The notes under the pieces: model-generated | Told to the model about the DNA's origin: nothing | The model's input: only the letters and a program-made list of their open reading frames with translations | The model's database searches: none | Program-made: the position numbers and the translations under genes | Origin: Ginglymostoma cirratum | Taxonomy: Eukaryota | Reading direction: 5' to 3' | NCBI GenBank assembly: GCA_024137785.1 | Contig: JAHRHZ010000082.1 | Location: 901,442-965,441, forward strand | Length of the DNA: 64,000 bases | Shown here: positions 2,024 to 63,420 of the stretch, one piece after another | Position numbering within the stretch: position 1 is the first letter of the stretch | How the letters are laid out: each line of letters begins with the position of its first letter

Positions 2024-2118
2024 TCTGAAGAAGAGTCCCGAACCGCAACGTCAGCTTTCCTACTCCTCTAATGCTACCTGGCCTGCTGTGTTCCTCCAGC
2101 TCCACACTGTGTTATCTA
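2024..2118 (+). mobile_element. Short Penelope-derived element (family A)
   Basis: CTGAAGAAGAGTCCCGAACCGCAACGTCAGCTTTCCTACTCCTCT..., homologous to 40921-41010. Confidence 0.75.
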
Positions 2119-2546
2119 TTGCATAGCTATCACTTACCAGTAAAGCACAAACTCACCACTAAATGCTGATAATGAATAAATGCTATGAAGCAGTGTTTTT
2201 GACAAGACATGATTCTTTGTGATAAAGCTGGTGTTTACCTCAATGGAGATGTTAAAGCTGAAACATGAAATGAATGCAACATAATGGCTCCTCTCCACCA
2301 CTTCACTCAACAATTTAACTTAAACCCCAATCCCAAAAAGCACTCCACATGAGTGTAATCCTTCTGTTTGCCCAGACTCTCATCAGTAAATCTGCCAATT
2401 TAGCAGTAGTTGTTTCTTTTCCACTGCCCACTAAAAACAGCTTTAGCTGTCTGGCTGGTAACAATAAAGGAGATTTCATGTATTGGATTCAAACTCAGGT
2501 CCCAGAAATAAAAGGAGTCACACATCTTTCTTTCTTCAGAAGAGAT

Positions 2547-2680
2547 CTGAGGAAAAAGAGTCACTGGACTTGAAATATTAACTCTGCTTTCTCTCTGCAC
2601 GTGCTGCCAGACCTGCTGAGTTTCTCCAGCAATTTCTGTTTCTGTTTCAGATTTTCAGCATCCTCAGTTCTTCGTTTTAT
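2547..2680 (+). mobile_element. Short Penelope-derived element (family B)
   Basis: CTGAGGAAAAAGAGTCACTGGACTTGAAATATTAACTCTG...GCTGCCAGACCTGCTGAG. Confidence 0.75.
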
Positions 2681-2812
2681 TATATTGTTCTTGTCAGCTT
2701 GCTCTCAATTCAAGGTGATGTCAAATCAGGATCAGAAGATTCTGCATATGTCTTCATGTGACTGAACAAGCTGATCGTCATTCTGTCGGCTAGATGTCTG
2801 GCCAAATGAGGC

Positions 2813-3148
2813 AGGGGCGGATCAGTGGCTCAGTGGTTAACACTGCTGCCAAACAGTGCCAGGGACCCGGGTTCGATCCCACCCTCGGGTGACTATCTGT
2901 GTGGAGTTTGAACATTCTCCCAGTGTCTGCGTGGGTTTCCTCCGGGTGCTCTGGTTTCATCCCAAAGTCCAAAGATATGCAGGCTAGGTGGATTGGACAT
3001 GCTCAATCGCCCATAGTGTCCTGGAAAGTGTAGGGTTATAGGGATAGAACGTGGGAGTGGGGCTGGGTGGGATGCTGTTCAGAGGGTTGGTGCTGACTCA
3101 ATGGGCCAACTGGCCAACTCCCACACTGTAGGGATCCTCTGATTCTAG
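2813..3148 (+). mobile_element. tRNA-derived SINE (HE1-like)
   Basis: A box TGGCTCAGTGG, B box GGTTCGATCCC, conserved body and tail CACACTGTAGGGAT shared with three other copies in the window. Confidence 0.88.
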
Positions 3149-5418
3149 GATGTCCCACGTGGTAGTGGGATCTGGAGTGCCAGATTTCCTTCCTTCCTTT
3201 TGCTCTGACTTATCATTAAGATGTTTGGACTCAAAGCATGATGCAATTTGACAAAGAAATTGTTGCCACTTTAAATGGAAGGCAGCAAGCTCCTCACAGA
3301 CATTAATCTCAATGTTTCTGTCCTTCATACATTTCAGAGTATCTTTGAAACGTATTGTCCTGTACAGGGAGATGCTTTTCTGCTATTCAGACAGCATAAT
3401 TGGCTTTGTAGGGGCTTTGCCTGAATTTTTAAGGAGCTGACTTCAAGGACACTAACACTTGTTGGATGGCCTCCTGGTTGAGTCTACAAGATATGGGAAT
3501 GGCATTTCTGATAGAATTTCTCTAGCCCTCTTTTGTGTTAATGACGCACAGTCCAGTTCACACAGCAAGATTGAAGTCTTGTGAAAAAACTAGCCAATAT
3601 ATTTCCATATTTTAACAGACGTGGAGACTTAGGATATGACAACTAAAGTCATTTACTGAGGTCTTTTTATTATTCTGTGATGTTAAATATAGAACTTTTA
3701 TTTCAAATGATCAAAAATAAGTTATTTTTAATAATGCATCACCAATCTCCAGCATCACAAACACTCAAATGTTCACTCTGACCTTTAGCAGAGCCAAGAG
3801 TATTGCATCTTAGAAATTCACACACAGTAACTCTATTGTTAATCTGTTAAATCTATTGTAGCAATGCAGGATTATTATAGAGCATTAGTGTCTGCACTGA
3901 CAACACTGATTTGTCATTGCAATAATCTAACCACTAATGCACTTTAATCCATAAAATAACCATGTACCAAACAGTATATGTGTGTGGCAGTAATTATTAC
4001 TGAAGCTGTACTCAGAACAGTTTGATACATGTTTTAGATATTTGTAAAAACATTAAACCTTAGCTCAATTCAACTTATTTTGGGTGCATGCATTTTAAGG
4101 AAATAGCAGTGTACCAACCCAGAGTCTGAACTCCTTATGCACATGTGTAATACCAATGGCAAAAGGTCCAATACAGGACACAGCTGTCACAATTTAAAAG
4201 AAAAGTATTGATTTTATTCTTAAAGGTATTTTAACTATTTTGTTTTCACCATTTTCAATCTTAGTTATCTTGTGCAGTTTATCCATTTCCTTCTTATTTC
4301 AGTACAAATCAGGTCTTGGTACCTCTTTATTTCCCATCTATCTGGCAGTGTATTAAGGTGGGAATGTGTGCACGTTCCCTGGCACCATTACTGACAATGA
4401 GTTCACATTTACTGACAGCACCATGTACCCTTATCGTCCAATGCAAAGGCCTGATACATTTTCCTCTGAGTGAAGGGCTTTATCTCAATGTTTCCTGGTG
4501 GTTACTATGCAGTGGCTTATAAATCTGAGTACACTCATACTTTCTGTTAGTGGAAGGAAGTGCATTATATCATCTGGTGATCAGGTAAAGGGGTTGTCTC
4601 TCTTTCTACTTTGTATTTTAGAAGAGGATCTTTCTACATATCTGTAGGTCTAATGAGCTAGATTGGTTTCATGTTCTCTGGCAGTCTTGGGGAATAGGAA
4701 CCATGCAGGTTCCTTGCTGGTGCATTGGTAGAATTTGCTCATTGACTAATCAACGACTAGAGAAGGGGGTAGCTTTGTTGATTTTTGTTTGGAGGGAGGA
4801 AATTCACTCAAGTTCAGTTCTGGCTTCCTTCCTAAACCATTTTGCCTCTGTCTCTTTCTCTCTCTCCTCCTTTAAAATGATCCTTGAAACTTGACCAAGT
4901 CTTAGGTCGTCTGCCTATATAACTTAAGTTTTATTTTTAATTCACTCTTTGGAAAAAAATACAATTTTTGACGCATTGGAGTTTTAATTTGATGTAGTTG
5001 GCTTGTAGCAAATAATCTTTCTTAGTCTTGTGTTTGGAAATGTCATGTGCAAGTGGATCTACTCTGTTTTGATACTTAATTGAAACTATTTGATGAAATC
5101 CCAATTTCCTCTCATTGCCTGAGGTAGAAAAGAATTGAGCAGGAGAGGGTGTACCTCATCAAATAATGTTTTGCCAAAACCATTTTAGTTGCTGAGACTT
5201 GTCTAAGCTGAATTGGCTTATGTTTAGTGTATGAAATATTTTTGTCTAGTGTTGAATTGTAAATATAGGAAGTAGGAACATTGATCTCTTGGTTTCCACC
5301 AGCTGTAGACAATGACTGCATACATTCTGGGTTGAAGTGCTATGAATCATGAAGATGTAGACTATTATGGTGCAAACTTAATGTTGATTCCCTGATTTTT
5401 AGGTAAGCTAGCCATAAT

Positions 5419-5600
5419 TGGAGAAAAAATCAGAGTTAATGTTTCAGTCCAGTGACCCTTCTTTTCTAGTTCTGAAGAAGGGTCACTGGACCCAGAACGT
5501 TAATTCTGATTTCGCTCCACAGATGCTGCCAAGATTTTCCAGCAATTTCTGTTTTGTTTCTGATTTCCAGTATCCGCTGTTCTTTTGGTTTTTTGTTTTT
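5419..5600. mobile_element. Palindromic family B element
   Basis: Inverted arms centred near 5465; the right arm reads AGTTCTGAAGAAGGGTCACTGGACCCAGAACGTTAATT. Confidence 0.75.
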
Positions 5601-6032: not shown

Positions 6033-6535
6033 GTGGCAACGAGATTGGGATTAATGATGTAACCATGCAAAAGAGCCTACATCTGAAGCCCAACTGGACT
6101 TCAAACAGGTACTACAACTGGCTTTGTCAAAGGAAAATGCAGCAAGTGGAACATAAGAGTTACAGGACATTCTAGTGGAAATGGATGCCCTTGGCAGTCT
6201 GACTGAGCTTGGGGAACACCACTTGAGTGAAGGCAATTACATAGCCTCACTCAGGAAATATCCTGAGCAGAGGGACTCTAGGTCAGTCCGCAGCAAAATC
6301 CCAAAACAAAGCCATGCCTTGAAAAACGGTTAAAATTATCTTCAGGATCCAGACCATTGTAGTTGCTGCCAGTATGTGGACTTGAGACAGCTAAAGAGTC
6401 CCACTAGACCTAAACTGAGTAAGAGAACTCAGGCCAGTATCCAGGAGAGTGCACTCCCTGGAAAATCCATCTACATCTGGTTTGTAACGGTTAAATTCCT
6501 TAGCAACTTCCAAATTAGAACCAATCAAAATAAAT

Positions 6536-6635
6536 GCTACCTGGAATACACCTCCTCCCACCCACCCTCCTGCAAAAATGCCATCCCCTATTCCCAATTC
6601 CTTCGCCTCCGCCGCATCTGTTCCCAGGATGAGAC
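6536..6635 (+). mobile_element. Penelope-like ORF fragment nested in the Gypsy element, running into the gap
   Basis: Translates YLEYTSSHPPSCKNAIPYSQFLRLRRICSQDE, the typical Penelope RT thumb/linker segment. Confidence 0.8.
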
Positions 6636-7035
6636 NNNNNNNNNNNNNNNNNNNNNNNNNNNNNNNNNNNNNNNNNNNNNNNNNNNNNNNNNNNNNNNNN
6701 NNNNNNNNNNNNNNNNNNNNNNNNNNNNNNNNNNNNNNNNNNNNNNNNNNNNNNNNNNNNNNNNNNNNNNNNNNNNNNNNNNNNNNNNNNNNNNNNNNNN
6801 NNNNNNNNNNNNNNNNNNNNNNNNNNNNNNNNNNNNNNNNNNNNNNNNNNNNNNNNNNNNNNNNNNNNNNNNNNNNNNNNNNNNNNNNNNNNNNNNNNNN
6901 NNNNNNNNNNNNNNNNNNNNNNNNNNNNNNNNNNNNNNNNNNNNNNNNNNNNNNNNNNNNNNNNNNNNNNNNNNNNNNNNNNNNNNNNNNNNNNNNNNNN
7001 NNNNNNNNNNNNNNNNNNNNNNNNNNNNNNNNNNN
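6636..7035. other. Assembly gap (400 N)
   Basis: Run of N. Confidence 0.99.
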
Positions 7036-7302
7036 CAGCCCCATGCTTGTTATCCAGGACCCAGTGGGTCAGTTTGCTTTTGTGGGGATTATAAACAAAC
7101 GATAAACTGCCTTTCGCACCTGGATAAATACCAAATCCCTTGTGTAGAGGATTTATACACAAAGCTGGAGGGGAAATGTCTTTCACGAAGCTGGACATGA
7201 GCCATGCCTACTTGCAACTGTATTTAGATGAGGATTCCCAGAAGTATGCTACAATTAATACCCATAAAAGTTTGTACCAATGTACAAGACTGCCATTTGG
7301 GG

Positions 7303-7401
7303 TTTTGAGGAAGGGTCTCAGACCCGAAATGTTAACTCTGATTTTTTTCTTCACAGATGCTGCCAGACCTGCTGAACTTTTCCAGTAACTTTGTTTTTGT
7401 T
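7303..7401 (+). mobile_element. Short Penelope-derived element (family B) inserted in the Gypsy RT
   Basis: TGAGGAAGGGTCTCAGACCCGAAATGTTAACTCTG...ACAGATGCTGCCAGACCTGCTG; TSD ACTGCCATTTG at 7289-7299 and 7402-7412. Confidence 0.85.
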
Positions 7402-8901
7402 ACTGCCATTTGAGGTATCATCAGCCTGTGCAATTTTCCAATGGATGATGAATAACATTTGATAAGATCTAGCTCAGATCGCCATTTATCTAGATGACGA
7501 GCACTTAGAGAACTTGGACATTGTCCTCAGATGTTTCTCCCAGGTAACCATATGCCTTAGAAGGGAAAAATGTGTGTTCCCTACACCCCAAGTGACCTAC
7601 TTGGTCTATAGTCAACAAGACGAGGTTACACCCATTGGAGGATAAAGTGAGGGCAATCAAAGGTGCCCTGTCTCCCACATCTGTTCCGGAGCTTAGGTCT
7701 TTCCTTGGGTTAGTAAATTCTTACAGGAAGTTCATACATAACCTGGCATCCATCATTGCAACTTTGCATCAACTCTTTAAGAAGGGTCAGCCATGGAAAT
7801 GGTTGCATAGCTAAGCCATAGCTTTCAAGGAAGTGAATGGCACACTGTGATCCCAAGTGAGATCTAGGATTGAAATGCCTCCCCGTACAGCATGGGGGTG
7901 GTATTACCTCATAGGTGGCCCAAGGGAGACGAACACCCAATAGCATATGCATCCAGGACTTTGGCTAATGCAGAGCATAAATACGCCCAGCTAAAGAAGA
8001 AAAGTTTGGCGGTCATACTTGGAGTCAGGAAGTTCCACCAATACCTTTACAGACATAAATTTGTAATAATATCAGGCTACAAACCCCTGTCAGGTCTACT
8101 TAAAGAGGACATGACAGTGTCACCCATAGCTTTGGGCCAAATTCGGAGGTGGACTCTAACACTAAGTGTGTATAATTACAAGTTAGCACACTAGCCAGGA
8201 GGTCAAGTAGCAAATGCTGATGCAGTGAGCCACCTCCTGCTGGCAGATACACCACCAGTGGTACTGCCACTGGAAGAGTCCGTAATGGTTTTGAATTTTC
8301 TGGTCACACTTGCAGATACAGCTGACAATTTTGGGCTTTGGATGCATAAAGATTCAGTCTTGGCAAAAACTGAAACAGCTAGAGGTGATGGGAGCTCAAT
8401 GGCCATCGCAACCAGAACTGAAACCTTTTGGACCTGGAAAGACCAGATCACAGTACAGGATTGCGTATTATTATAGACAGCAAAAGTGATTGTCCTAAGC
8501 AAAGGTCGTCACCAGATACTGGCTGAACTCCACCGGGATCATATAGGGGTTTCCCAAAAGATGATGTTGGCGAGACGTTATGTCTGGTGACCAGGACTAA
8601 ATGCAGGCATAGCCACATTGGTGGGACAGTGCCCAGAGTGCCAACAAGGACAAAAATTACCACCCACTGCTCCCCCCACATTTGTGGGAATGGCTAGGTA
8701 AACCCTGGATTCAGTCACACGTCGACTGTGCAGGTCCTTTAAATGGGCTCAATGATCTTGGTCATTGTGGATGCCCACTCAAAATGGCTGGACATACAGA
8801 GAGTTCATTCATCAAACACAAGCATGACGATAGAAAAACCGTGCACATCTTTTGCAATATGCAGACTCCCAGCAGAGTTGGTCACAGATAATGAGACACT
8901 G

Positions 8902-9210
8902 ATTGAGGTTGTTGACTTACTCATCGAGCCGGTGGGTTTGGTTGCAGACATTTTGTCACTCTGCTAGGTAATATCGTCAGTGTGCCTCTGGTGAAGCGTT
9001 GGTGTTCTGTCCCACTTGTTATTTATATGCCTCGGTTTGCTGGGGAGGTTGGCATTACGTCCGGTTCTGTTTTCAGTGGTTTGTATATCAGGTCCAGTTC
9101 AATGTGTATCTTGACAGAGTTCCAGGGACTGGGACAACACATCCATAATAGCACAAGCCAAACACAGACATCAAACAGAAACCCAAGCTACCAATCTTCT
9201 CAAAAACTTT
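8902..9210. mobile_element. Penelope 3' fragment with internal inversion (family D) inserted in the Gypsy integrase
   Basis: Interrupts VTDNG..TPF. The minus arm encodes NSVKIHIELDLIYKPL followed by a hammerhead-like motif (8947-8980); the plus arm encodes DWDNTSIIAQAKHRH. Approximate TSD AGACACTG (8894-8901) / GGACACCG (9211-9218). Confidence 0.7.
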
Positions 9211-13531: not shown

Positions 13532-13556
13532 TATATATATATATATATATATATAT
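13532..13556. repeat. (TA)n microsatellite
   Basis: About 12 TA units. Confidence 0.95.
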
Positions 13557-19360: not shown

Positions 19361-20010
19361 CTGTAACAAGTAAAAAAAATGAACAGAAATTCAACACATT
19401 TACTTGAAATCCAATCAAGTCAGTAAATCACATCATTCAGGCCAAAACTTACTACACTCTATCCTGGAAAAAGCCCATTTTGCCTGCAACTCCAAGAAGT
19501 AAACAGACACACTACAGCAGACCATGAGTGTTCTAAATGACTTCCCGAATGCGCACCGCTTCTCTTGGCTAGTTACCGAAAAAATCATGTGTCCAAATCC
19601 CTCTTGGGAAGGAAATCAGAAAAGGAGACCATTTAACTCTCATGGACTGTATTTAGGACTTGCAGAGGTGATGGCGAGTAAGAATTTAGAAAAAAGAACA
19701 AATTGCAGGAACAGAAACTTTTTTTTTGCCACAACAGGTCATAGAACTCCTCGTTTTTTTCTTTAAAAGAAGTTATACATCTGTAACTCTGAATACCAAC
19801 TATGTTTTATGCTAATTGCTTTGGTCATTGCACTGAAGGAGGACCACTGCTGACTGGGATTACTCATTTGAACTGACACAATGAAAACCTAAATGTCTCA
19901 AATGATAATTGACAAATGGCATTCAATATGCATATCATGTTTTTCTAGGGTTTTTACTTCTATACTATAAGAGAAGATTCAAGCAAGTCTCTTCCCACAA
20001 ACACAGTTGT

Positions 20011-20059
20011 AGACAGACAGACACACACAGACAGACACACACAGACAGACAGACAGACA
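20011..20059. repeat. Compound (GACA)n/(CA)n microsatellite abutting a splice donor
   Basis: AGACAGACAGACACACACAGACAGACACACACAGACAGACAGACAGACA directly next to CTTAC. Confidence 0.95.
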
Positions 20060-20064
20060 CTTAC

Positions 20065-20844
20065 CTGCTCCTGGAGGACCAACCAAGACTGCCATGGCTT
20101 CAATCAGCAATACAAGTCCAATGGCACTGGCAAACTTCTCAGTTCCAACGATCGCCATCAAGACCTCAAACTGCAGCGCTCCGACCATTCCATAGGACAT
20201 TCCAAAGAAAATGCAAAACACCGTCAGACCAACATAATCACGAGCAAAGGAGCCTCCTAGATCAGTAATTCCATTGAAAATCATAGCAAAGCTGAAAAGA
20301 TACACACAGCGAGGCCGGACAACCTTCAGCCCAGCAACGATACCACTAAGAGGTCGAGCAAATATATCAACAAAACCCAAGATCGACAACAAGAAAGCAG
20401 CATCTGTGTCTGGCACTCCTGTATCTTTTGCATAGTTAACTATGAACACGGGAGGAACAAAAAGACCGAAGACCATGATGGAAGCTGCTACGGTGTATAT
20501 CAGGAAGCCTCGATCCTTAAAGACAGTGAAATCCAGAAGTTTCTTTTTCTTCTTCCGCTTCTCTGTTTCCTTTGCTTGTTCTATAATTTCCTTTTCTTTA
20601 CGGCTTGGTTTCAGGGGTCTCATCAGGGCTGCACAGGCACAGCAGTTCAGCAGTAGACCCCCAAGAATGAGGAAACCTCCTCGCCATCCATAAACTTTAG
20701 ACAGGATCTGACCCAATGGAGAGAGGCAACACAGGAACACGGGGCTCCCAGCTGCAGACAAGCCATTTGCCAATGGGCGACGCTTGTCAAAATAAAGGTT
20801 TACCATGATGAGAGATGGTTGAAAGTTCAAGGCCAGACCAAGAC
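20065..20844 (-). CDS. SLC16A3: MCT4 coding exon 3 (780 nt)
   Basis: [29 protein letters not shown]...VDIFARP...LVGPPGA, including the MCT motif [11 protein letters not shown] and the TM8 D/R pair. Acceptor ttcattgcag and donor GTAAG at 20064-20060. Confidence 0.97.
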
Positions 20845-21957
20845 CTGCAATGAAAACAAAAACATAATTCCACTGGTTAAGCAGTTTTTTAAAAAAAGTT
20901 AAGGCACTATTTACAGTTAAGTGAAATAATGAATTAAAACCAAAACACAGGTCCCAAGCTATTTCGGGGGAGGATTCTCAAACACAATTTGACATCAAAC
21001 AACATGATAAGGTATTAGGACAGATGACAAAAAGGTTGGAAAAAAGGAGCTTCAAAACGAAAGAGAGGTAGAGATAATTGGGAAGGGAACACCAGCACCC
21101 ATGTTATAGAAAATACAGTCAGTGGATGGGTTAGAATTTGGGGCGACAGAATTGAAGGACAGAGATCTCGAAGAATGGTATGGCTGAAGGAGGTTAGCAA
21201 AACAGAGAGGGCCGTATGGAGAGATGTTAAAAACAGAATGAGACTTTTAAAATTGAGGCATTACCAAGCCAGAAGCCCATGCAAGTCAAGAGCATGGGTG
21301 CCAGGTGAAAGGGACTTGGTGCAAAATAGGATGCTGGCTGCAGAATTTTAGATGTTAAGTTCATGCAAGGTACCTTCAAAATATGACCAAGACAAAACGA
21401 TTGGTACTGCATTTCAAGCAGCCAATGTACAGTTTCAACAATAAACTTTCTAAGGGAACTCATTTCAAGTACATATTTGAAAGATATTCCTAGGTTATTG
21501 CGGAAAGAGCAGGAGATTAGGACTAATTGGACTCTTACAAAGGCACAGAGCCAAATATTCTTCCTGTCTGCTGCATGATTATGTGAATCTCTACAATAAT
21601 GAAACGTAAACTGATTAGAACCACAGTAACTCAAAAATCTCTGTGTAATGAAAAGAAGGTGTACTTTTTCCAGTTTAGGTAGTTTCATATCATTCATAAA
21701 GTTTCACTTTAAGATATAATTTGAGGTACTTAAACCATCAGGAGTTGTAGTGACTTGAGACATAATGTTTTATTGTAGAAATTAAACAGAAAATTTCGGA
21801 AATATTTGGCATGTCAGGCAGCAGCTATGAAGAGTGAAAAACTTCATCTCTCCATAGCTACTGCCCAACTTGCTGGGCGTGTCCAGCATTTTCTGTTTTA
21901 TTTCAGATTTCCAGGAATATTTTCTTTAAAAAAGAAAAGAAGACTGGTGTTTCTTAC

Positions 21958-42805: not shown

Positions 42806-43469
42806 GAGATAGTAGGAACTGCAGATGCTGGAGAATCTGAGATAACAAGGTGTAGAGCTGGATGAACACAGCAGGCCAAGCAGCATCAGAGGAGCAGGGA
42901 GGCTAATGTTTCGGGCCTAGACCCTTCTTCAGAAAAAGGCCCGAAACGTCAGCCTNNNNNNNNNNNNNNNNNNNNNNNNNNNNNNNNNNNNNNNNNNNNN
43001 NNNNNNNNNNNNNNNNNNNNNNNNNNNNNNNNNNNNNNNNNNNNNNNNNNNNNNNNNNNNNNNNNNNNNNNNNNNNNNNNNNNNNNNNNNNNNNNNNNNN
43101 NNNNNNNNNNNNNNNNNNNNNNNNNNNNNNNNNNNNNNNNNNNNNNNNNNNNNNNNNNNNNNNNNNNNNNNNNNNNNNNNNNNNNNNNNNNNNNNNNNNN
43201 NNNNNNNNNNNNNNNNNNNNNNNNNNNNNNNNNNNNNNNNNNNNNNNNNNNNNNNNNNNNNNNNNNNNNNNNNNNNNNNNNNNNNNNNNNNNNNNNNNNN
43301 NNNNNNNNNNNNNNNNNNNNNNNNNNNNNNNNNNNNNNNNNNNNNNNNNNNNNNNAGGCCTGAAACGTCAAGCTTTCCTGCTCCTATGATGCTGCTTGGC
43401 CAGCTGTGTTCATCCAGCTCCACACCTTGTTATCTCGGATTCTCCAGCATCTGCAGTACCTATTATCTC
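42806..43469. mobile_element. Family A / Penelope element with inverted termini spanning an assembly gap
   Basis: GAGATAGTAGGAACTGCAGATGCTGGAGAATC at the left end and its near reverse complement at the right end. Confidence 0.8.
42956..43355. other. Assembly gap (about 400 N)
   Basis: Run of N. Confidence 0.97.
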
Positions 43470-46019
43470 AGGTCAATAATGTTTGCCTGCAACTACTTAC
43501 GTGTTGAACTTAGTGCAGAAAACTACATTTGAATATAGAGGTGAGAATGTTAAAATTGAAGCATTGATTAACTCAAAGTCAGTAAGCAACCACAGGGGTG
43601 ATGAGTCAATGCAATTTTGAATGAAGTTTAGTGCAAATTGGGACACAGGCAGCAGATTTTCGATACCTTCTGAGTTTGCAAATGGTGGAGAATGACAGGT
43701 CAACCAGGGTGCATTGGAACAGTTGAGTCTAGAGATATCAAAGCCATGAATTAGGATTTCTGTAGAAGCTGAGCTGAGATAAGGATGGAGTCACGCTTTG
43801 TTACGGAAGTGCAATTTTGATATTTTGATGGCACAGTTTTTTCCAATACTCATTTCTGGATTAGTTTTGACACCAGGATTCTGAAAAGTTACATTTATCC
43901 TCAAAAGAGAGTTGCCAGATGAAGATGGAATCAGTGACTAAGAATTTGAAGGAAACATATCTCCAAAATTAATTGGAAGAGACTTCTGAGCTGACATTCA
44001 CTGCTGGATGTGCAGAAGTGTGACACTGGAGGAGTCAAAGAAAGTAATAAAGAGGTAGAACTAGTTTTCATCAGCATCCATGCAAAGATTGATGCTCTGC
44101 TTTCAGATGTGACTAAAAGGGCAGCAGGTTTGGAGCAGCAGGGAAACATCTTTTGGAGATATTAGAGGTAGTGGTTCAGGAGTGGGAAGAACACCCGTAG
44201 CAAATGATTCTCTAGCTACCAATGGATTGTTAAGAATGGAGTAAAGGAAGTCCAGTTCAACCTAGCTATATAGTACCATTGGATTTGGAGAAGGATGGTG
44301 TGGTCAGAGACTACAGACAGGTTAATAAGGAGAGATAGTATATCATTGTCCATCAGATAAAATGTGTCAATTGCAACTGTTTTGGTACAGTTGCTGCGAA
44401 GAGAATCTGACTGAATTCACATTTGGAGTTATGCATGTAGTAGGAGACAATACGTTTCAAGACTTTGGAAAGGAAAGGGAGATCGGAGACAGGGCTTGTA
44501 ATGATGAATGGTCATGAGTCTTTTAGGAGGGGCTACAATGGAGGGATGACAATGGCAGATTTGAACGGTTAGGAAGTTGTTATTGAAATACCTGAGGAGA
44601 GAGTTGTTATTCCAAACCAGCACGAAGCCGAGGATAAGACATTGGACAGTTAGAAGCTGGGTTACGGCTAGTAAATTAGAAGCTTAATAGGAATAAAATC
44701 AAACGAAGGTCACCTAAAAATAGGTACACGTGTGAGGGAAGACAAGCAAAACAATACACAAAAAGTTCAGGGAGAATTTTAAAAAGACGCTTGGTCCAGT
44801 GGATGGGGGAAGGGAGGGAAGCAGATAAGGTTGTTAAGTGGACGGTCTTAAAGTTAGTGACAGAAAGTTTGTGATCTCCTTGTACTTGTTCTGGGAGGGG
44901 ATAAATAAGACAGGGGAGAAAGGTCTAAAAAGGATAGTTTATAGTAGCTGCAGAAATTGTGATGAGTGGAGAGCCACAGACTATACATTTGGGATTTTGA
45001 AAGTGTAGTTCTAAGAGAATTGGGATAAGAGTTTTTGTTTTCCCCAAGGACAGAATACAAGAGGTCAGATTGGGAAAGGTGTTGAGAGTGGACAGTGCAA
45101 TGTATAAGTGTTCAGAGGATGACATAATGGACACAGCCAAGGCATGGGAGGTGATAAAGTCAAAGAGGCAACTGTAAGCATATTTACCAGAGTTTAGATG
45201 CAAGTATTTTTCTTACTGGTTTAACCAGTTAATAAAAATGCAACCTTTAAGATAGTGATACAATGCATTAAAGGATCCTGCACTTTTCATAACATTGTGT
45301 GAAAAAATGTCATCTGATTTAGAGATGACATTTCAATGCTGTACAACGGCAGTGGAGGCAACAATATGACACTTGCATTTTACAAGTCTACTGATCAGTC
45401 AACGAAAGTACAATTTGCACTTTGTGGAAAATGTTCCACAGTTGCACAGCGCCAGGGCCTGAGCAGGAATTTTTTTTAAAAAATGACCCAAAGCAGCACT
45501 TTCCAATTTGGAGAAATGTTACAAAGTATCAGGGGTTTAGCGAGAGACAAAAAAAAAAAATCACAACTCACAAATTGGGGGCATGATTACTCAAAATTGT
45601 ATTATTCTGGTGCAGTGGAAGGGAGGATTGGAGTTGGAAAAGCAGAGGTATAAGCAACAAACAGCATTTGTAAATGCTGTCAGCAAATGCGGTCGGCACA
45701 ACATCGTGGGCCGAAGGGCCTGGACTGTGTTGTACTGTTCTATGTTCTATGTAGAAGGTGGTTGTGGCCTAGAAATTGTTATGAACCAGGATTCTGAAAT
45801 CACTATTTGGTGGCGGAGGTGGATGAATGCTTTGCCCACCCTATGGAACAGCGTTAGATTAGTTAAAAAGTGGCATGTTGGAGAAATTGGGAGTTTGTGT
45901 AGGGTGGTGCTCAGGTTTATGCGCAGCATGCCCTGAAAATAAATCCCAATTTCAGAGTGTGTCACATTATGCTGTACCCAAGTGGAAATCTATTTTTGAT
46001 CTGATAAACAATGCTTTTT

Positions 46020-47217: not shown

Positions 47218-47675
47218 GGGGCAGTACAGTGGCTCAGTGGTTAGCACTACTGCCTCACAGCATTAGGGACCTGGGTTTAAGACCATAAGACATAGGAGTG
47301 GAAGTAAGGCCATTCGGCCCATCGAGTCCACTCCACCATTTAATCATGGCTGATGGGCATTTCAACTCCACTTACCCGCACTCTCCCCGTAGCCCTTGAT
47401 TCCACCTTTGGGTCACTGTCTGTCTGGAGTTTGCACATTCTCCCTGTGTCTGTGTGGGTTTCCTCCAGGTGCTCTGGTTTCCTCCCGCAGTCCAAAGATG
47501 TGCAGGGTAGGTGGATTGGCCATGCTAAATTGCCCGTAGTGTCCAGGGATGTTTGGGTTAGACATGGGAAATGCAGCAATAGGAGAATGAGTCAAGGTGG
47601 GATGCTCTTTGGAGGCACAGCATGGACTTGTTGGGCTGACTGGCCTGTTTCCACACTGTAGGGATTCTATGATCT
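47218..47675 (+). mobile_element. tRNA-derived SINE (HE1-like) with a CR1 tail inserted in its B box
   Basis: SINE head 47218-47279, antisense CR1 tail about 47280-47399, SINE body resumes about 47400. Confidence 0.85.
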
Positions 47676-47917: not shown

Positions 47918-48091
47918 ACAAAAACTGGAAATCTGGCAGCATCTATGAAGATCAGAGTTAACGTTTCGGGTCCGGTGACCCTTCCTCAGATGTTTTTCTT
48001 CACAGATGCCGCCCAGACCTGCTGAGCTTTACCAGCAACTTCCGTTTTTGTTCCTGATTTACAGCATCCGCAGGCCTTTCGGGTTTTTTTT
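47918..48091. mobile_element. Palindromic family B element with intact minus-strand hammerhead-like core
   Basis: TSD TCAGCATGACTA at 47906-47917 and 48092-48103; minus strand 47989-47960 reads CTGAGGA-A-GGGTCACCGGACCC-GAAA-CGTT. Confidence 0.88.
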
Positions 48092-48199: not shown

Positions 48200-48304
48200 A
48201 CAAAAAAAAACAGAAACTGCTGGAGAAGCTCAGCAAAGTCTGGGCAGCATCTGTGGAGAGAAAACACAGTTAATGTTTCGGGTCCAGTGACCCTTCTTCT
48301 GAAC
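48200..48304 (-). mobile_element. Family B element, single arm
   Basis: GCTGGAGAAGCTCAGC...GCAGCATCTGTGGAG...GTTAATGTTTCGGGTCCAGTGACCCTTCTTCTGAAC. Confidence 0.8.
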
Positions 48305-50565: not shown

Positions 50566-51745
50566 TGGGGAGGCAATGGTCTAGTGGTATTTTCGCTGCG
50601 ACAAAAACAAAGTTGCTGGAAAAGCTCAGCAGTTCCGGCAGCATCTGTGGTGGAGAAAACAGAGTTAACGTTTTCGGGATAACAAGCATGGGGCTGGATG
50701 AACACAGCAGGTCAAGCAGCATCATAGGAGCAGGAAAACTTGACGTTTCGGGCCTAAACCCTTCATCAGAAATGGGGGAGGGGAAGAGGGTTCTGAAATA
50801 AATAGGGAGAGAGGGGGAGGCGGATAGAGGATGGATAGAGGAGAGACTTTCCACATCAGGCAGAGGTTCACCTGCACATCTGCCAATGTGGTATACTGCA
50901 TCCGCTGTACCCGTTGTGGCTACCTCTACATCGGGAAAACCCAGCAGAGGCTTGGGGACCACTTTGCAGAACACCTGCGCTCAGTTTGCAACAAACAACT
51001 GCACCTCCCAGTCGCGAACCATTTCAACTCCCCCTCCCATTCCTCAGATGACATGTCCATCCTTGGCCTCCTGCAATGCCACAGTGATGCCACCCGAAGG
51101 CTGCAGGAACAGCAAATCATATTCAGCCTGGGAACCCTGCAGCCCAATGGCATCAATGTGGATTTCACAAGCTTCAAAATCTCCCCTCCCCCAACCGCAT
51201 CCCAAAACCAGCCCAGCTCATCTCCACCTCCCTAACCTGTTTTCCCTCTCACCCCAAGCCACACCCCCATCTCCTATCTACTAACATCATCCCGCCCCCT
51301 TGACCTGTCCGTCCTCCCTGGACTGACCTATCTCCTCCCTACCCCCCTACCTACACTCACCTTTACTGGTTCCATCCCCGCCTCTTCGACTTGTCTGCCT
51401 CCTCTCCACCTATCCTCTCCTCTATCCATCCTCTATCCGCCTCCCCCTCTCTCCCTATTTATTTCAGACCCTCTTCCCCTCCCCCATTTCTGATGAAGGG
51501 TTTAGGCCTGAAACGTCAAGTTTTCCTGCTCCTATGATGCTGCTTGACCTGCTGTGTTCATCCAGCCCCATGCTTCTTATCTCGGATTCTCCAGCATCTG
51601 CAGTACCTTTTATCTCTCATAAGGTTTTCGGGTCCGGTGACCCTTCCTCAGAACTTTCGCTGGACTGTTAATCCAGAGACCCAGATAACATTCTCAGGAC
51701 CTGGATTCGAATCCCGCCATGGCGGATGGTGGAATTTAAATTAAA
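50566..51745 (+). mobile_element. tRNA-type SINE head split by nested insertions
   Basis: A-box half TGGTCTAGTGG at about 50577 and B-box half GGATTCGAATCCC at about 51703; TSD TTTCGCTG at 50591-50598 and 51655-51662; homologous to the minus-strand SINE near 55480-55594. Confidence 0.75.
50679..51619 (+). mobile_element. 5'-truncated Penelope-like retroelement with GIY-YIG endonuclease segment and inverted terminal copy
   Basis: ORF 50831-51235 has NVVYCIRCTRCGYLYIGKT...R...EH...NHF...E...N (GIY-YIG with CCHH), followed by a C/T-rich pseudo-LTR. 50677-50843 is the reverse complement of about 51415-51582. Confidence 0.92.
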
Positions 51746-54700
51746 GAGAAACAAAATGGTTTGGAAGTTACAGATTGAAATCTTTGAACTTTGAGTGCAG
51801 AAGGCTGTAATTTATGTAAATGAAAGGTGAGCTGCTGGTCCTCCAGGTTTTGTTGAGCTTCACTGGAATTTTGCAAAAGACTGAGGACAGAGAGGTTAGA
51901 GTGGGAGCAAGATGGTGAATTAAAGTGACACGCTGTCGGAAGCTAAGTGTCACATGCTGGCACTGAATGGATTTGTTACTAACCTCCTTTAATCTTTAAC
52001 AATTCTGTCATTCTGTTAATGAGCATTTTCTCTCCCCAGTGAAATAGGAATGCACTGGCAGAACTATCTGGCGACTCCAAACCATACCATCTACAGCAAT
52101 GTTACCTGTTGAGGTTAGCACGCCAGGTAAAGTTCCTGGGGTTTGACTGAGCTAGGCCCTTGGATGCCAAAATTTTCAGGGGGTAAGAATGACCCAGCTG
52201 TGCTATCTTCTACATAAATCTTCCAGATAATATCCACTACCCAGCTAATAGCTATCAATATCTTCATGATAATCAATTTTTATGCTTTCCAGCTTCATCT
52301 ATGCTACAGCTGAATAAAATATACCCTCTCACCCAGTGTTACTCAGTGAAGCAAGCCAGTGACTGATCTGCCAGAGCAAACGCCTTCAAAACATTAGCAG
52401 TATTAGATTTATAGAGAAATATAGTATGAAATTGTTACAATATTTCAGAATTCTATTGTATAGCTGGCTTTACATGAATACAAGGAGCAAACAACTGTAT
52501 GTACATAGCCAACAGAGTCTGTACCATCAACATAATGATGTAAATGGATAGGAAGAAGTATTACTCAATGTCCAACTGGTCTTTCATTATCCAAACAAAT
52601 TTATGTCGGTCAATGCTACCCAGCAATTTACATGATGCACCTGGTTTGTTTTACCAATCATCTGTGGCAATTTTATTTGAAGGGAAAGTTAGAGTGAATC
52701 CCCAAAGACCCTGGACAGAAACAAGAAAAGAAAGCACTGGAGAAACTCAACACCCCTGTGCAGAGAAAAACAGGTTTGTTTGACTCCAGCATGGCTGTCA
52801 GATCTGCTGCTTTCCATTTTTATTTCAGAACTCCAGCATTCACAGCATTTTGCTTTTATTTGAGTGTTTAATTCACTGCCACTTCACCTCATGTGCCCAT
52901 TTTAAAAAGCTCTGCCATTGACTCTGGTAGGATTTCTGTTATAATCTTTCAGCTTGTTCACCTTCATTACTTTCTACCTTCCTCCAAGTGTTTGATAAAG
53001 TGTTTGTCAAAAGTTACTTTCACTGCTACATCTCCTTCTTCAGTAACTCTCTGGCTTCACCATACCCCACACAGTTTCCAATTGAAGTTCCATCCTTTAT
53101 GTTTCAAATCCACCCAAGATTACAGGAATCTCTGATAACATGCAACATTCCTAAAACAACTGTTTCTGCCACATCTTCAGATCCACATTCAATGCCATGC
53201 ACCACCACATGCACACTTTCGGCTTCTCTCTTCATCAGCACCACCTCCCAATATCTCTAAGCTGTCCCGGGGTTCAATTCCATTTTGTTCTTTGTCTCAT
53301 TCAACCCTTAAACAAAGGAAAATTCTGTTCTTTTCAGGAGTTAAAGAATACAAGTTCCAAAAATTCCCAGGTACTGATGCCCCTCTGGAGTTCTAACTAC
53401 CTTCCTTTCTCTCCAACTCCATCCCTTCTTGCAATCCACTGTCTTGTCATTTAATTGCTATACTCCTTGACCTTCCCCTGTCTGATGCGGAATAATCTGT
53501 GTTCAGCAAAGGACGTAGTTTTATCCATTTACACCATCACCTGAAAAAATTTCAGGCATGACATGACATTGAATTCTTCTGTCATCTGCCTTCATGCCAC
53601 TTCTTCTAATCCAGCCCCATAGATCCTTTCATCAGTCTTCAGAATGACTTCTCTATCTGGATCAGCCCTTCTGACCTTTTACCTGAACTTGATCTCATCA
53701 TTGAGAACTGGAGTTCCAAAGAAGAATTATGCTAGACTTGAAATACTAACGCTTGTTTTTACCTCTTCCCTTGCTTGATATGTCAGGTACTTTCATGGAT
53801 GCTAACTAACCATCCGTGCTGTTAGTTCTCTCCTTGGTTCATAGCATAGGGCTTATGTTCCCTGCCTTAAAGCATTTCACTCTTTGAATTCTACAGGATC
53901 ATTTTACTGAGTAAACACTTTGATTTGCCCACTTCATATTTCAAATGCTCAGATGCCTCCTAATTCCAGTTAATTTGGTTGACATAATTGCTTAGGGGAT
54001 TAGGGTTTCTCCATTTTCATTGAGTAGGAAACTTGCACAGTTATCAGCTGACAAGCTTCAGTGACTTCTTCCAAAAATATTTATCATGCGCATTCAATTC
54101 AGGAATGGCACAAGAATAACAATTTCTAGGATTTAATATCTGTTGCCCATAAATATTCAAAGAGAGCCACTGGTTATTGGAATGTGGAGTTGAAATCATA
54201 ATCACATTAGCCATGATCTTACTAAACAGCAGAAAAGACTTGAGGGGCCTAGTGGCCCAATTCTGCAGCTAATTTATATGTTTGTATTCCTGCACAGCCA
54301 CCATGGATGAAATGCAAGATTTACAGCTAGGCTGTTCCAAAACCTTAGGCCTCTTAGTTTAAAGCCATGATTTCATATTTGTAGGAATTTCAGAAAGTGA
54401 AACTGTAGATTTCAGAAAGCTTTTTTTGCAATTACATTTTCTGGTTTACTCCCAACTTTTGTATTTTTCATAAACAAGATATATAGCCTACATGGTAGAC
54501 ACGGGATACCAGCAGTGGTCTGTGAGTTCATTATGTTTCTCATGACCAGACATCAGAATTGTGTATGCTTGTATTTGTTAATCTACTGACACATTCAATA
54601 GATTTGACATTTTCCATCAGCCTGTGAAATACAGTGCATTTGTGGAAAGTAGGTTCATGAAAATTAGTTACTGTTATGATCCAACATTTGCATCTGAACC

Positions 54701-58439: not shown

Positions 58440-58534
58440 AGAGATAAAAGGTACTGCAGATGCTGGAGAATCCGAGATAACAAGCATGGGGCTGGATGAA
58501 CACAGCAGGTCAAGCAGCATCATAGGAGCAGGAA
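58440..58534 (-). mobile_element. Penelope 3' terminal fragment (family A)
   Basis: Nearly identical to the reverse complement of 51522-51617. Confidence 0.85.
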
Positions 58535-58764: not shown

Positions 58765-58972
58765 AAAACTGATGCTAGAAATCCTAGACAGACACAGAAA
58801 TAGCTGGAGAAACTCAGCAGGTCTTACAACATCTGTGGAGAGAAAGCAGAGCCAATATTTTGGGTCCAGTTATGAAGAAGGGTTACTGGACCTGAAATGT
58901 TAACTCTGTTTCTATCTCCACCGATGCTGCCAGACCTGCTGAGTTTGTCCACTTATTTCTGTTTTTGTTTCA
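58765..58972. mobile_element. Palindromic family B element
   Basis: Inverted arms centred near 58870, with TGAAGAAGGGTTACTGGACCTGAAATGTTAACTCTG. Confidence 0.8.
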
Positions 58973-59357: not shown

Positions 59358-59673
59358 GAGATAACAAGCGTGGGGCTAGATGAACACAGCAGGTCAAGCA
59401 GCATCATAGGAGCAGGAAAACTTGACGTTTCGGGCCTAGACCCTTCTTCAGAAACAGGGGAGGGGAAGGGGGTTCTGAAATAAATAGGGAGGGGGAGGCG
59501 GCTAGAGGATGGATAGAGGAGAGGATAGGTGGAGAGGAGGCAGACAGGTCGAAGAGGCGGGGATGGAGCCAGTAAAGGTGAGTGTAGGTAGGGGGATAGG
59601 GAGGAGATAGGTCAGTCCAGGGAGGACGGACAGGTCAAGGGGGCGGGATGATGTTAGTAGATAGGAGATGGGG
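59358..59673 (-). mobile_element. Penelope pseudo-LTR fragment (family A)
   Basis: Close reverse complement of about 51267-51585; TSD GATTTCCC at 59350-59357 and 59674-59681; intact core on the minus strand at 59424-59451. Confidence 0.88.
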
Positions 59674-61269
59674 GATTTCCCTTTCACTTTTCCCTGTCCT
59701 TTTTTTAAAATAACGTTGTCCCACAACTTGGATTTCACCTCCTCTGGAACTGGTCCGTTGTTGTAAATGCGATGATTTGCAAAAGCAAAATTCTACAGGT
59801 GCCAGAAGACAAATAAAAAGAACAGAAAGGGCTAAATGTACTGAGCAGGCCAGGCTGCATCTATGGACAGAGAAACAAGATTTAACGTTTTAGGTCGGTG
59901 GCCTTTTGACGAACTCAAATTATGCAAATTACTTATTTAGCAGTATGAGTAGAAGATTGCAGAAAGAACTTGCTATCGTTTACGCCCTTTCCTTTCATGA
60001 CACACTGTCGTTTTGTCAATATTAACCATATCCTGAGGACGTTTTTCTTGTCTTTGCATTTCTCTGATGGAGTTTTTTTAAAAAATCCTTTCACTTTTTA
60101 TCACAACGTTTAGTTTGGCTCTTTGTGCTTTCGCTCGGTCTTTTCCTTTGTTTCTTTGTTAAATTTCAATACTTAAATTTGCTTTGCTCGTTCTTCCCTT
60201 GCTGCTTGTTTGCATATTCATTCTGACTTCACTTCGACTTTCCTATTTTGTGTAACAGGAATGACGTTGCAATGTATTGCGGGCGTTGTAGAAAAGTACA
60301 TGGAAGGAAATACACAGTGCCTGTAAATGAGTTGTGTATTCCTATTATAGTAAAATACATCTCACTGCGCTATGAATCAGCAGAAAGCGTACACCAATCA
60401 GTCTTCCATTTCCCTTTCCACCACGCAAGAACGCACAATAATATATCAAGAAAGACTCGATAAAACTGGACACTTTATTATTCCAGTCAGAGCCTTTTTT
60501 CCTACTTGTAAATTGTGAAATGAACTGAAACCTGCACGCACACGACGAGGTTTCAGAAAACATAACCATCTCAGCGAGGCTCTGATGAAATTTTACCTAA
60601 CCAAAGCGTTAACTGTTTTCCTCATTAATGCTGCCTATCCCGCTGAGTGTTGCCAAACATCTTCTGTTTGAAGTACGAGAGGTTAGATGATGGATGGTCG
60701 TTCATGAGCACTTTTAAAATAAATGCTGAGAGACGAGCCTTTATTGTCGGGGGGGTGGTAACTTGAACCTTTTGGACACGTGTATTCACAGTGAAAGAAA
60801 TGACATCCCAGTCCTGTGAGAGAGTATTCTTTTGCAGACCTAAACGGGAGAAGAATATGCCAAAGAGCTGATGCTTGCAGTTTCTCACGCATTTTCCGCT
60901 ATGTTTTTGGAAACGATCACTTACTGGCAAAGGGTTCATTGTTGGGAAATCTGGACCCAAAACAGAAAACGTGTGAATGCGTAAAGTGCCTTTTCATCAA
61001 TGAGCAGGTCTTTGTGTATTTAAAAACAAATTGGATCTTTAGCATATCTTTGTTGTTGCAGAGATTGGAGTCACATTGTGGATACGTGCAGACCAGCAGC
61101 TCTCTAAACAATTCAATATAAACAGCCTGAACATTGGCGAGGAGAGAGAGGACTGTAAGTGTAGCCTCACTCCACTCCCCGCAGCCTGTCCTCCCCACCG
61201 GGTCCAGAATGATGGGGACTGGTGAAAGTGTTAAAATTTAGCTCCCTGCGTTATTAAATTAGGAATTAT

Positions 61270-61400
61270 AGACCATAAGACCATGAGCACAATTAGGCCA
61301 TTCGGCCCATCGAGTTTGCTCCACCATCAAATCGTGGTTGGTACATTTCTCAAACCCATTCTCCTGCTTTCTCCACGTAACCTTTGATCCCCTTACCAAT
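61270..61400 (-). mobile_element. CR1 3' tail
   Basis: AGACCATAAGACCATGAGCACAATTAGGCCATTCGGCCCATCGAG, homologous to 47280-47399. Confidence 0.75.
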
Positions 61401-61799
61401 CAAGAACCTACTTATCTCCTTCTTTGTGTATTTTAAGAATCAACCACCAAAACAAAAGACCCATTAATCCAGTAAAACTCAGCTTTTGATTTTTAAGTCA
61501 ACCTGTTTGAGCGTTTCTTTGCAACTTGAACCTAGATCTAATGGCCCAGTGGCAGGGACACTTAGCACTAGCCCCTTTCAAATATTTGTCTAATTAATTT
61601 TTAATATTAGAAGATCCTTTCATAAAACCTTTGGGCTAATCGATATAAAATTAAAATACATTTCAACTGAGAGAATCATTATGGATGATAATCACTGAGA
61701 GGACTAAGAAGAAGGATGAATTCTCTCAGCACTCTTGCTATTTATTTTCAACCTGTATTGTGTTTAGTTGATTTATTTGAATAAAATATATATCTTACA

Positions 61800-62090
61800 A
61801 AGAAAACGGAACCATTGTTGGTGGCACAAATACTCCGCCCGTTCGGGGGAACCCCGGATCCCGGAATGGATTTGACAGAAGTACGACCGCGCGTCACCGT
61901 GGCAACGGTAAATTAGCGGCCTATTTGAACGGGCTTTGAATGGGTTTGTGACCAAAGAGACGAACTGAAACATAATTGTGGAATTACAGTGGCGGTAGGA
62001 GTGGGCGAGAGAGGTGAGATTGGAGAGCGAGCTCAGAGATAAAATCAGGTTTTTGAGGAGCTCGACGTGATGCCGTTTCTGAACAAACTG
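61800..62090 (+). promoter_or_regulatory. Second CpG-rich promoter with RFX X-box; probable start of a divergent gene
   Basis: CpG cluster, X-box-like GTCACCGTGGCAAC at 61893-61906, ETS-like CCGGAA at 61861-61866 and a possible donor CG|GTAAAT at 61908. The strand is inferred. Confidence 0.55.
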
Positions 62091-63316
62091 ATATGAAATC
62101 AAGGTTGCAAACTGTTTGATTAAGCATCGTATAGTTCTCATGCAGAAAGTTGGTGTTGATCAGATTGTAACTGGGACTTAAAAAGTAATGATTTCAGTCT
62201 TCCGACTATTGTTTGGAGAAAATCAATGCTGATCAAGAGCATTGGCCAGAGTTTATGCTACTTCCTTCTGTTCATCGACATCTGAGTAAGGAAAGCATTT
62301 CAGTTTAGGTGTGATGCATACTGTGAGGCTAACAGTACATCAATTTAAGGCTCACAAAAATTATCATAAAGTTGGAAAGATAACATTTTGTATGTACCTG
62401 CTGCCTGAGTCATTATCCTAGTAATGAATCAAGAGCATTGATGAGGAGGATGTACGGGGTGGGGGTGCGGGGGACCAGTAATAGCAGTAATAATAACAAA
62501 AAAAAGGAAAAAGAGTTGTAAACTGAAGATTTGGCAGTTGGTAGAAGGAATTTTAAATATGTTAATTAGAATGCATACATAAAGATATATATTTAAATTC
62601 AAAAGTTGAAATGTACACTTTAGATTTTTTTTAACCATCAGTGAGAAGATCAGGGTTCTACTTCCAGTGAGTCTAAATGGACACAGCCCTCAATGGAAGA
62701 ATCAAAGTAGCAAGAATAACAATAGATAGGAGGCATAGCAGCGTTCTGGTTCCATGACTGTTGGAGTTTATAAGGCACTTAAAGTGGGGCAACTTCAACA
62801 CAGGATCAAGTTAACATAAAGTTGCAGGTTTCATAATGACAGTTTGAACTTGGCCATACATACAACTGAGAAAGTCCTTGTATCATAGTTTCTGTAGCAT
62901 TAGTTAAACTCACCAATGTAACAATGGGAATGATGACACAATCAGGTTTAAAGAGGGAAGACACATCTAGGATTCTGCATTCAGTGAATCTGATGGAAAT
63001 ATATGATTCGGCCTCAATTTCCAAAATATCTATCTTTCTAAACCTGCAATTATGATGTCATCATTATGTTTAATGCCTGTCTGTGAATGCTATACTACGC
63101 TATCATTTACTTTTCAGATTAGTTGCAGCGAACTGTGGGCCCCGTTGCCATGTATTAAATAGGGTGGAAATTTTAACTGAAGAAATTTAGTTCAAGGTTG
63201 TAATCTTCTAGATTCTGGACAGGCCCACATGTAGCAATACTGCAGATATACTGTCTGTATTAAACAGGGGAGGAAAACTAAAAACAGGAAGCTATAAGCC
63301 AATTTGTTTAATATCC

Positions 63317-63420
63317 AGTTCTGACGAAGGGTCACTGGACCTGAAACGTTAATTCTGATTTCTCTCCACAGATGCTGCCTGAGCTGCTGAGCTTTTTCAA
63401 CGATTTCTGCTTTTGTGTCT
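63317..63420 (+). mobile_element. Family B element with intact hammerhead-like core
   Basis: AGTT-CTGACGA-A-GGGTCACTGGACCT-GAAA-CGTT-AATT, core starting at 63321. Confidence 0.82.

Follow-up and report, generated by a model that had tools for sequence, protein, structure and literature searches.

Hammerhead-bearing repeats in a Ginglymostoma cirratum locus as probable terminal fragments of ORF-bearing Penelope-like elements

Introduction

The minimal type I hammerhead ribozyme (min-HHR) of Penelope-like elements (PLEs) was described by Cervera and De la Peña in 2014 (PMC4209133). The accessible part of that paper gives as its traits an extra base, a G10.1-C11.1 pair, a palindrome, and occurrence as dispersed single copies, and it reports min-HHRs in the fish elements Xena, Poseidon, and Neptune. 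As both the motif and its link to PLEs have been in print since 2014, meeting such a motif in a shark is in itself ordinary. In the portions available of two later papers, the role of the PLE hammerhead is termed unclear (PMC8557442) and cleavage in vivo is said not to have been observed (PMC11167929). A young, very abundant vertebrate family, whose insertion ends can record where the RNA starts, where it is primed (two sites), and perhaps where it is cut, offers a cheap test of that role.

Results

The window analyzed here is a 64-kb stretch of the Ginglymostoma cirratum genome. An earlier note on this DNA had described about 20 short repeats in four families (A to D), and we found 20 loci that bear a hammerhead (7 in A, 11 in B, and 1 each in C and D), with CTGANGA and a stem-loop present at 8 of the 8 places that it had named. 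A full-core pattern (CTGANGA, 1 nt, a helix II ≥4 bp long, GAAA, NN, and TH) matched seven window loci; in 200 block-wise dinucleotide shuffles of the window, matches averaged 0.01 and never exceeded 1. The motif in the window is real. An Rfam scan of the window (E ≤ 1) matched no hammerhead model; its nine matches were all to miRNA models, below gathering scores, and originated in fold-backs and simple repeats. The copies of family A are as follows.

50678-51616, plus strand: young family A (classed as Neptune-type) insertion, 5'-truncated, with the GIY-YIG end, 3' UTR, hammerhead (51490-51517), and tail
50742-50769 (hammerhead), minus strand: inverted, shorter A copy preceding the young insertion
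40802-41010, plus strand: fold-back stub starting at -4, with hammerhead 40921-40948, inverted arm 40802-40911, and an 18-nt flanking duplication
59358-59673, minus strand: copy truncated at -226, hammerhead 59424-59451
42806-43470, minus strand: hammerhead stub (42905-42932, minus) with an opposite-strand tail (43356-43470) beyond an N run
2022-2117, plus strand: decayed stub starting at -3
28336-28470, plus strand: fold-back stub lacking the CTGA box, 16-nt flanking duplication
58441-58534, minus strand: tail alone, starting directly 3' of the core

The copies of the other three families are these.

47932-48087, minus strand: family B fold-back stub (classed as Neptune-type) whose intact core (47960-47989) lacks the 5' strand of helix I, 14-nt flanking duplication
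63316-63416, plus strand: B stub starting at -5, hammerhead 63321-63350
48203-48304, minus strand: B stub with a mutated core
32072-32269, no single strand: B fold-back with back-to-back decayed cores (32175-32204, minus; 32210-32239, plus), 12-nt flanking duplication
5427-5593, plus strand: B fold-back stub, core 5472-5501
2543-2672, plus strand: decayed B stub
7302-7405, plus strand: B stub with C3 mutated, 15-nt flanking duplication
50601-51655, minus strand: B stub interrupted by an A insertion (halves 50601-50678 and 51626-51655)
58771-58969, no single strand: decayed B fold-back
59815-59912, minus strand: heavily decayed B stub
31445-31650, plus strand: family C fold-back stub (classed as divergent Neptune-type) whose core, 31534-31562, reads GGAA in place of GAAA, 13-nt flanking duplication
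8905-9209, minus strand: family D (classed as Penelope/Poseidon-type) 5'-truncated copy with the last endonuclease codons, decayed core 8947-8980, and inverted piece 9127-9209

Flanking duplications of at least 12 nt bordered 7 of 18 window insertions (range, 12 to 18 nt) but none of 290 random controls. The young insertion at 50678-51616 sits inside a family B stub and has a 13-nt flanking duplication; its GIY-YIG segment scores E = 1.7e-4, narrowly under the Pfam cut-off, and the copy matches P0001 at 94%. Because its 50845-51616 part extends 660 nt upstream into that domain, the repeats cannot all be called short. Most of the window copies are probably decaying passengers.

What the earlier note had observed was thus partly confirmed: the motif stood at every site, and its descriptions of the individual families needed amendment. 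The string given for family A is found at 40921-40948, and the further copies cited beside it are variants (CTGATGA, loop TTAG). The AGTT/AACT helix I of family B occurs in the B source element (L046) but not at 47960-47989, where ACAT precedes the core. Families C and D were called decayed, which is true of the window copies, whose GAAA boxes are broken, but intact versions exist elsewhere in the genome (161 and 359 exact pattern matches, respectively). Nor are A and B dissimilar outside the motif: they share 72 to 74% identity over 62 to 86 nt of core and tail and 61 to 64% amino acid identity in the upstream ORF. Since these two are relatives, the four families amount to three independent lineages.

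Genomic copies with an intact CUGANGA, GAAA, and UH core number in the thousands for A and B and in the hundreds for C and D; as these copies were chosen by patterns that already required the core, its conservation among them cannot demonstrate selection. The base between A9 and 10.1 is A, A, A, and U in families A to D, and a G-C pair (G10.1-C11.1) closes helix II in all four. The earlier note had invoked a viroid precedent for the extra base, which is unnecessary because the accessible text of PMC4209133 lists that base as a conserved trait of PLE hammerheads. The palindrome replacing helix III (15.1-16.1) is ACGU in A, B, and D and AGCU in C, and it is kept in 180 of 215 motifs of the fetched loci, a pattern-enriched set in which 33 of the 35 exceptions are CpG decay. 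Across the predicted cut site, helix I is 4 bp long in the young examples of A, B, and D and keeps three of four pairs in the older A and C examples, its sequence differing in each; it is weak in D subfamilies and absent from several window copies. The proposal that helix II changes sequence yet keeps pairing was borne out, the core and the pairing of helices I and II being kept across three unalignable lineages in a comparison made by hand because MAFFT misaligned family D against A to C. The hammerhead was the minimum-energy monomer fold in none of the five cases predicted.

All four families have genomic copies that extend 5' into a Penelope-like ORF. The full-length unit was assembled for family A alone, from one locus (L228, a partial tandem), where pLTR, hammerhead, leader, and ORF lie together; in the other three families, the upstream sequence was traced for no more than ~1.2 kb. 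A leader of ~135 nt precedes the RT and GIY-YIG ORF of family A, its first Met lying ~163 nt after C3. A 760-amino-acid open frame matches RVT_1 (E = 3.8e-7) and GIY-YIG (E = 2.6e-5) and ends ~260 nt before an A hammerhead. The GIY-YIG match of the family B ORF falls below the Pfam cut-off, the family C ORF is 30% identical to that of A (E = 2e-8), and family D has RT and GIY-YIG motifs by eye with no Pfam match. Of 13 broken ORF pieces, 10 had no match in Pfam and one had a weak unrelated match, and a PDB sequence search with the ORF gave none. A Cx2-5CxxC linker between RT and EN is present in A, B, and C and absent in D, and by this feature, rather than by an RT tree, we class the first three as Neptune-type and D as Penelope/Poseidon-type. 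The pLTR organization appears as the partial tandem at L228, an inverted 5' copy at 50678-51616 in the window, and two 3' end sites. At another locus (L311), a 38-nt trimer resembles a local duplication.

Penelope origin, as the earlier note had proposed, is therefore supported, but its separate families of non-autonomous mini-retroelements are not, since each family forms the end of an element that carries an ORF. Copy length forms a continuum from ~100 nt to >2 kb with 3' ends in common, and the same subfamily variants occur in short and long copies; in a two-class test of 63 family A copies, young and older variants numbered 8 and 28 among short copies and 12 and 15 among long ones. We consider it very unlikely that the stubs are genuinely non-autonomous elements, of a SINE- or retrozyme-like kind, self-transcribed from short loci and mobilized in trans: short copies are indeed commoner than ORF-reaching ones, the B core occurs once as a 38-nt tandem trimer (L311), and the available portions of published work have rotifer pLTRs working in trans (PMC3846280) and retrozymes originating from pLTRs (bioRxiv 10.64898/2026.07.22.740005), but the same variants occur in short and long copies, only 9 of 630 short-A pairs share upstream sequence (which in every case is the inverted arm belonging to the element rather than a private flank), and the window holds no tandem stub arrays.

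Copy ends were mapped in 60 unselected 10-kb stretches. There, 3' ends lay at ~+93 and ~+126 in A and at ~+96 and +123 to +132 in B, and such fixed ends agree with the known PLE "tail." For 5' ends, the interval from -8 to +3 held 23 of 75 in family A and 29 of 57 in family B, and that from -11 to +3 held those of 6 of 10 tail-bearing C hits; 12 of the 75 A copies and 1 of the 57 B copies reached upstream of -250. No 5' pile-up was seen in family D, 23 of 30 copies continuing upstream. The start contexts are CCATTT, TCAGTT, and CCACTT, which we take to fit the initiator consensus.

The base before ATTT in young exact-core A copies was G in 59, A in 31, and T in 10 (~27 G expected; P = 9e-12), a hand tally of non-C bases in the first 100 listed, not randomly drawn, of 5,360, which includes junction-sharing inverted pairs and point-changed long copies. 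A non-templated G before young A copies is expected from copying of a cap. In the unselected, mostly older sample no excess was found, G preceding ATTT in 5 of 16 short A copies (P = 0.22) and standing at the junction in 0 of 4 B copies; among 24 short copies at B loci with an exact core, 13 carried C at -5 and 5 carried G. In unstranded poly(A) RNA run X21, 30,449 reads aligned, equally on both strands, 82% of them extending into unlike sequence, and neither starts nor ends piled up at the element; run X22 gave 12 reads only.

A different origin of the pile-up at -4, in which RT, working on ordinary 3' pLTR templates, stops or switches template at the folded hammerhead's 5' edge or at a C-rich tract upstream, seems to us unlikely. 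In A and B, the pile-up falls at helix I's outer end, starts are scattered over -6 to -1, and fold-backs are frequent among stubs, all as such stopping would have it, but it predicts neither the G excess at the junction nor an initiator-like context in three families. The shared start point likely marks the beginning of the element RNA.

Breaks in young A copies genome-wide numbered 497 at +28, the predicted cut site, against 119 at +27, 374 at +29, and 226 at +38; these counts are a hint only, because A-runs, single-base deletions, and inverted-arm microhomology confound them. Among breaks in unselected DNA, 3 of 81 in A and none of 56 in B coincided with the predicted base. The cut-site footprint is weak and modest, and confined to young A. 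It is equally doubtful, in our estimate, that the hammerhead is cleavage-dead in vivo and retained for another role, such as a promoter or protein-binding structure. That reading agrees with the absence of B breaks at the predicted site (0/56) and, in the accessible parts of the papers, with the weak activity of min-HHRs in vitro (PMC4209133), mutants without effect on in vitro insertion, and a total of 0 RNA-seq reads ending at the site (PMC11167929). Against it, the core and the pairing of helices I and II are maintained in three unalignable lineages, and young A breaks are commoner at the predicted site than at controls.

Discussion

In our judgment, these repeats are probably terminal fragments of ORF-bearing PLEs (three Neptune-type and one Penelope/Poseidon-type) carrying the known minimal type I hammerhead motif, the shortest likely being run-off copies made by RT to a capped 5' end. 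The RNA would start at the initiator-like A that precedes C3 by 4 nt in families A and B and by 7 nt in C, and its first four bases would therefore form the helix I 5' strand. The element protein may prime internally at two tail sites, like the anole element in vitro, so that reverse transcription would begin 95 to 130 nt into the element's own RNA and run to its capped 5' end. Priming on the 5' pLTR copy would yield a stub of 100 to 130 nt, and priming on the 3' copy would yield ordinary 5'-truncated or full-length insertions. Cleavage by the hammerhead is probably slow, with ACGU/AGCU joining two copies in a dimer or with the protein assisting, and the predicted cut would remove the cap and ~32 nt. 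In L1, an extra G marks the cap (PMC11702581). The position of the start is not the same everywhere, since a Drosophila element starts 46 nt before an intron, according to the part available of PMC2377424.

More tentatively, the stubs, hundreds of thousands in number, could be a fossil map of a capped start at -4, a ribozyme within the first 35 nt, and a helix I made from the first four bases; cleavage might then be a decapping or end-processing switch, with a minority of copies, those starting at +28, derived from RNA cut in the germ line. Within the literature searched, we did not find the mapping of stub 5' ends, the cap-like G, or these shark families in print. Annotators should beware that the stubs can be mistaken for SINEs, MITEs, or miRNA hairpins.

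The comparisons below reflect the accessible portions of the papers cited. Non-LTR retrozymes (bioRxiv 10.64898/2026.07.22.740005), which occur in one chondrichthyan genome, likewise have a type I hammerhead and a pLTR origin, but they are defined as tandem arrays with a hammerhead per unit, whereas the window copies are dispersed monomers and fold-backs. Being dispersed and showing no tandem hammerhead units, the window copies do not fit the retrozyme definition.

Poseidon of Anolis carolinensis (PAc; Frangieh et al. 2024, PMC11167929) resembles the shark elements in having its hammerhead at the pLTR-ORF junction and two internal RT starts downstream of it, which give the tail; its ORF begins in helix II, whereas the first Met of shark family A lies well beyond the core. 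Run-off stubs and a cap mark were not found in that text. The accessible text of PMC4209133 likewise shows neither shark sequences, which its supplementary alignments may hold, nor mapped 5' ends of copies. Its min-HHRs are otherwise close, with a type I core, one unpaired base between A9 and 10.1, a palindromic 15.2-16.2, a helix I of 4 to 5 bp, many families per genome, mostly single dispersed copies ascribed to truncated PLEs, and opposite-strand pairs 100 to 700 bp apart; the shark families differ in a helix II of 4 to 6 bp and in far higher copy numbers (8,807 exact matches of one 29-mer). With EN+ PLEs (PMC8557442, PMC3846280), the shark families share 5' truncation, partial tandems, an inverted pLTR, a tail of 30 to 40 nt, and TSDs, and, as in the shark families, the rotifer pLTR has an initiator-like motif.

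Hammerhead-bearing repeats of the window

A fuzzy scan combined with self-BLAST identified 20 hammerhead-bearing loci in the window (7 of family A, 11 of B, 1 of C and 1 of D), together with tail-only pieces and inverted arms. At seven of these loci the core is complete and helix II measures 4 bp or more, versus 0.01 in shuffled sequence; in an Rfam scan of the window, none of the models matched the hammerhead repeats. Common to all four families are CUGANGA, one extra base, a helix II closed by a G-C pair (4, 5, 5 and 6 bp in the four families), GAAA, a palindromic stretch that reads ACGU or AGCU, and UC or UU. Helix I (3 to 4 bp) is able to close over the cut site, and its letters differ between families, with a U.G pair in young A copies versus G-C in B. 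The motif strings quoted in an earlier note on this DNA all lie where it had placed them, but its claim of four unlike families had to be revised: because A and B are related, there are three independent lineages (A+B, C and D).

ViennaRNA did not favor the hammerhead as the monomer fold in any of five examples, a prediction that would fit, without proving, a weak or assisted ribozyme. At a locus outside the window, L311 (G000:C8:13624952-13625064), an intact B core occurs as three 38-nt head-to-tail copies within a fold-back stub; this natural trimer of the hammerhead lacks the AGUU strand of helix I.

The host is probably a shark. Exact patterns searched for in 4.36 Gb of genome gave 8,807 matches for A, 2,398 for B, 161 for C and 359 for D, and the reversed control pattern of each family gave 0. 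A sample of 120 unselected 10-kb stretches, amounting to 832 kb once N is left out, contained near-intact cores at densities per Mb of 85 for A, 30 for B, 5 for C and 4 for D; provided that this sample is typical, A and B have hundreds of thousands of copies in the genome.

The repeats as ends of Penelope-like elements

When 30 loci per family were compared with flanks of 1,500 nt, the downstream edge of similarity was fixed and the upstream edge variable in all four families, the longest upstream similarity within these flanks being 1,280 nt in A, 832 in B, 884 in C and 972 in D. Translated long copies yielded pieces of a Penelope-like ORF, and a natural open frame of family A (760 aa) matches RVT_1 and GIY-YIG. 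At another genomic locus, L228, the order is ORF end, 3' UTR, hammerhead, leader and an ORF beginning at a Met ~163 nt after core base C3. The Cx4CxxC linker of Neptune is present in A, B and C and absent from D. Endonuclease sequence is still retained at window positions 50678-51616 and 8905-9209, and flanking duplications of 12 to 18 nt accompany 7 of 18 window insertions (versus 0 of 290 controls). The upstream ORF pieces, the L228 unit, the linker, the endonuclease remnants and the duplications together identify the repeats as the terminal parts of autonomous-type elements, and the earlier reading of them as non-autonomous mini-elements is unneeded.

The family A 3' UTR, including that of L228, carries a pyrimidine tract ending in TTTCAG at about -45 to -24 before the core, like a 3' splice acceptor.

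The stubs are probably located in and around a major-facilitator transporter gene, of which the frame at 19979-20977 is, by its sequence, a large exon.

Neighboring features in the window (ORF remnants from tblastn with P0001, a family A protein sequence)
19979-20977, minus strand: MFS_1 open frame, 332 aa (Pfam MFS_1, E 1e-27)
6502-6636, plus strand: Penelope-like ORF remnant, adjoining an N run
39004-39135, plus strand: Penelope-like ORF remnant
51784-51942, minus strand: Penelope-like ORF remnant
53400-53708, plus strand: Penelope-like ORF remnant
2814-3138, 30218-30506, 35505-35721 and 47218-47668: longer, distinct repeat family with a tRNA-like head

We take the tRNA-headed family to resemble the shark HE1 SINE. 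At 50601-51655, a young family A element with a 13-nt duplication interrupts an older B stub within its hammerhead.

Copy ends and a proposed mechanism

Like their anatomy, the end positions of the copies were observed directly. In 60 unselected stretches, 3' ends fell at two sites ~30 nt apart, and 5' ends clustered at the hammerhead start: among hits that include the tail, 23 of 75 in A and 29 of 57 in B began at -8 to +3, each inverted arm being counted as a separate hit. A second mapping, of all 120 stretches, placed 21 of 81 A ends at -6 to -2 and 27 of 56 B ends at -6 to -1. The 5' ends of family D showed no pile-up. The start in A, B and C lies in an initiator-like context.

The base at -5 is C in the source elements; where exact-core A copies differ from it, they had G in 59 of 100 (the first 100 listed of 5,360). 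For L1, PMC11702581 treats an extra G as a sign of cap copying. Speaking against a capped start here, the G excess was not significant in older unselected A copies (5 of 16), and a junction G excess was not clearly seen in family B; the missing pile-up in D counts against it too. At a further locus, L004, a terminal repeat, hammerhead, tail and ~90 nt of ORF start are fused directly to a second stub, which begins G-ATTT at -5, a join suggestive of template switching onto a run-off end.

The copies are most likely accounted for by transcription start, internal priming and run-off. Transcription would begin at the initiator just ahead of the upstream hammerhead, and the element protein would nick DNA and prime at one of two sites 95 to 130 nt into the transcript. 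When the 5' repeat is primed, synthesis would run off at the capped end and leave a stub; when the 3' repeat is primed, the product would be a full or truncated copy; and fold-backs would come from a second priming. Both the start site and the cap are inferred here, as is any cleavage.

For young A copies, breaks matching patterns that require two non-element bases ahead of the tail numbered 497 at +28, where the cut is predicted, against 119 at +27, 374 at +29 and 226 at +38. The higher count at +28 than at +27 is consistent with a template starting at the predicted cut; the excess at +28 over +38 is only 2.2-fold, with clear confounders. Family B had breaks at its own predicted cut site in 0 of 56, and RNA reads were uninformative.

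Comparison with known elements

The hammerhead repeats are a genuine feature of an already known kind, in host families that are new. PMC4209133 names three of their features as consistent traits, namely the extra base, G10.1-C11.1 pairing and the palindrome, and also reports cleavage that is low and confined to dimers. The layout of L228 is the partial tandem described in PMC8557442, and the two 3' end sites of the copies studied here match the tail that PMC11167929 traced to two internal RT start sites.
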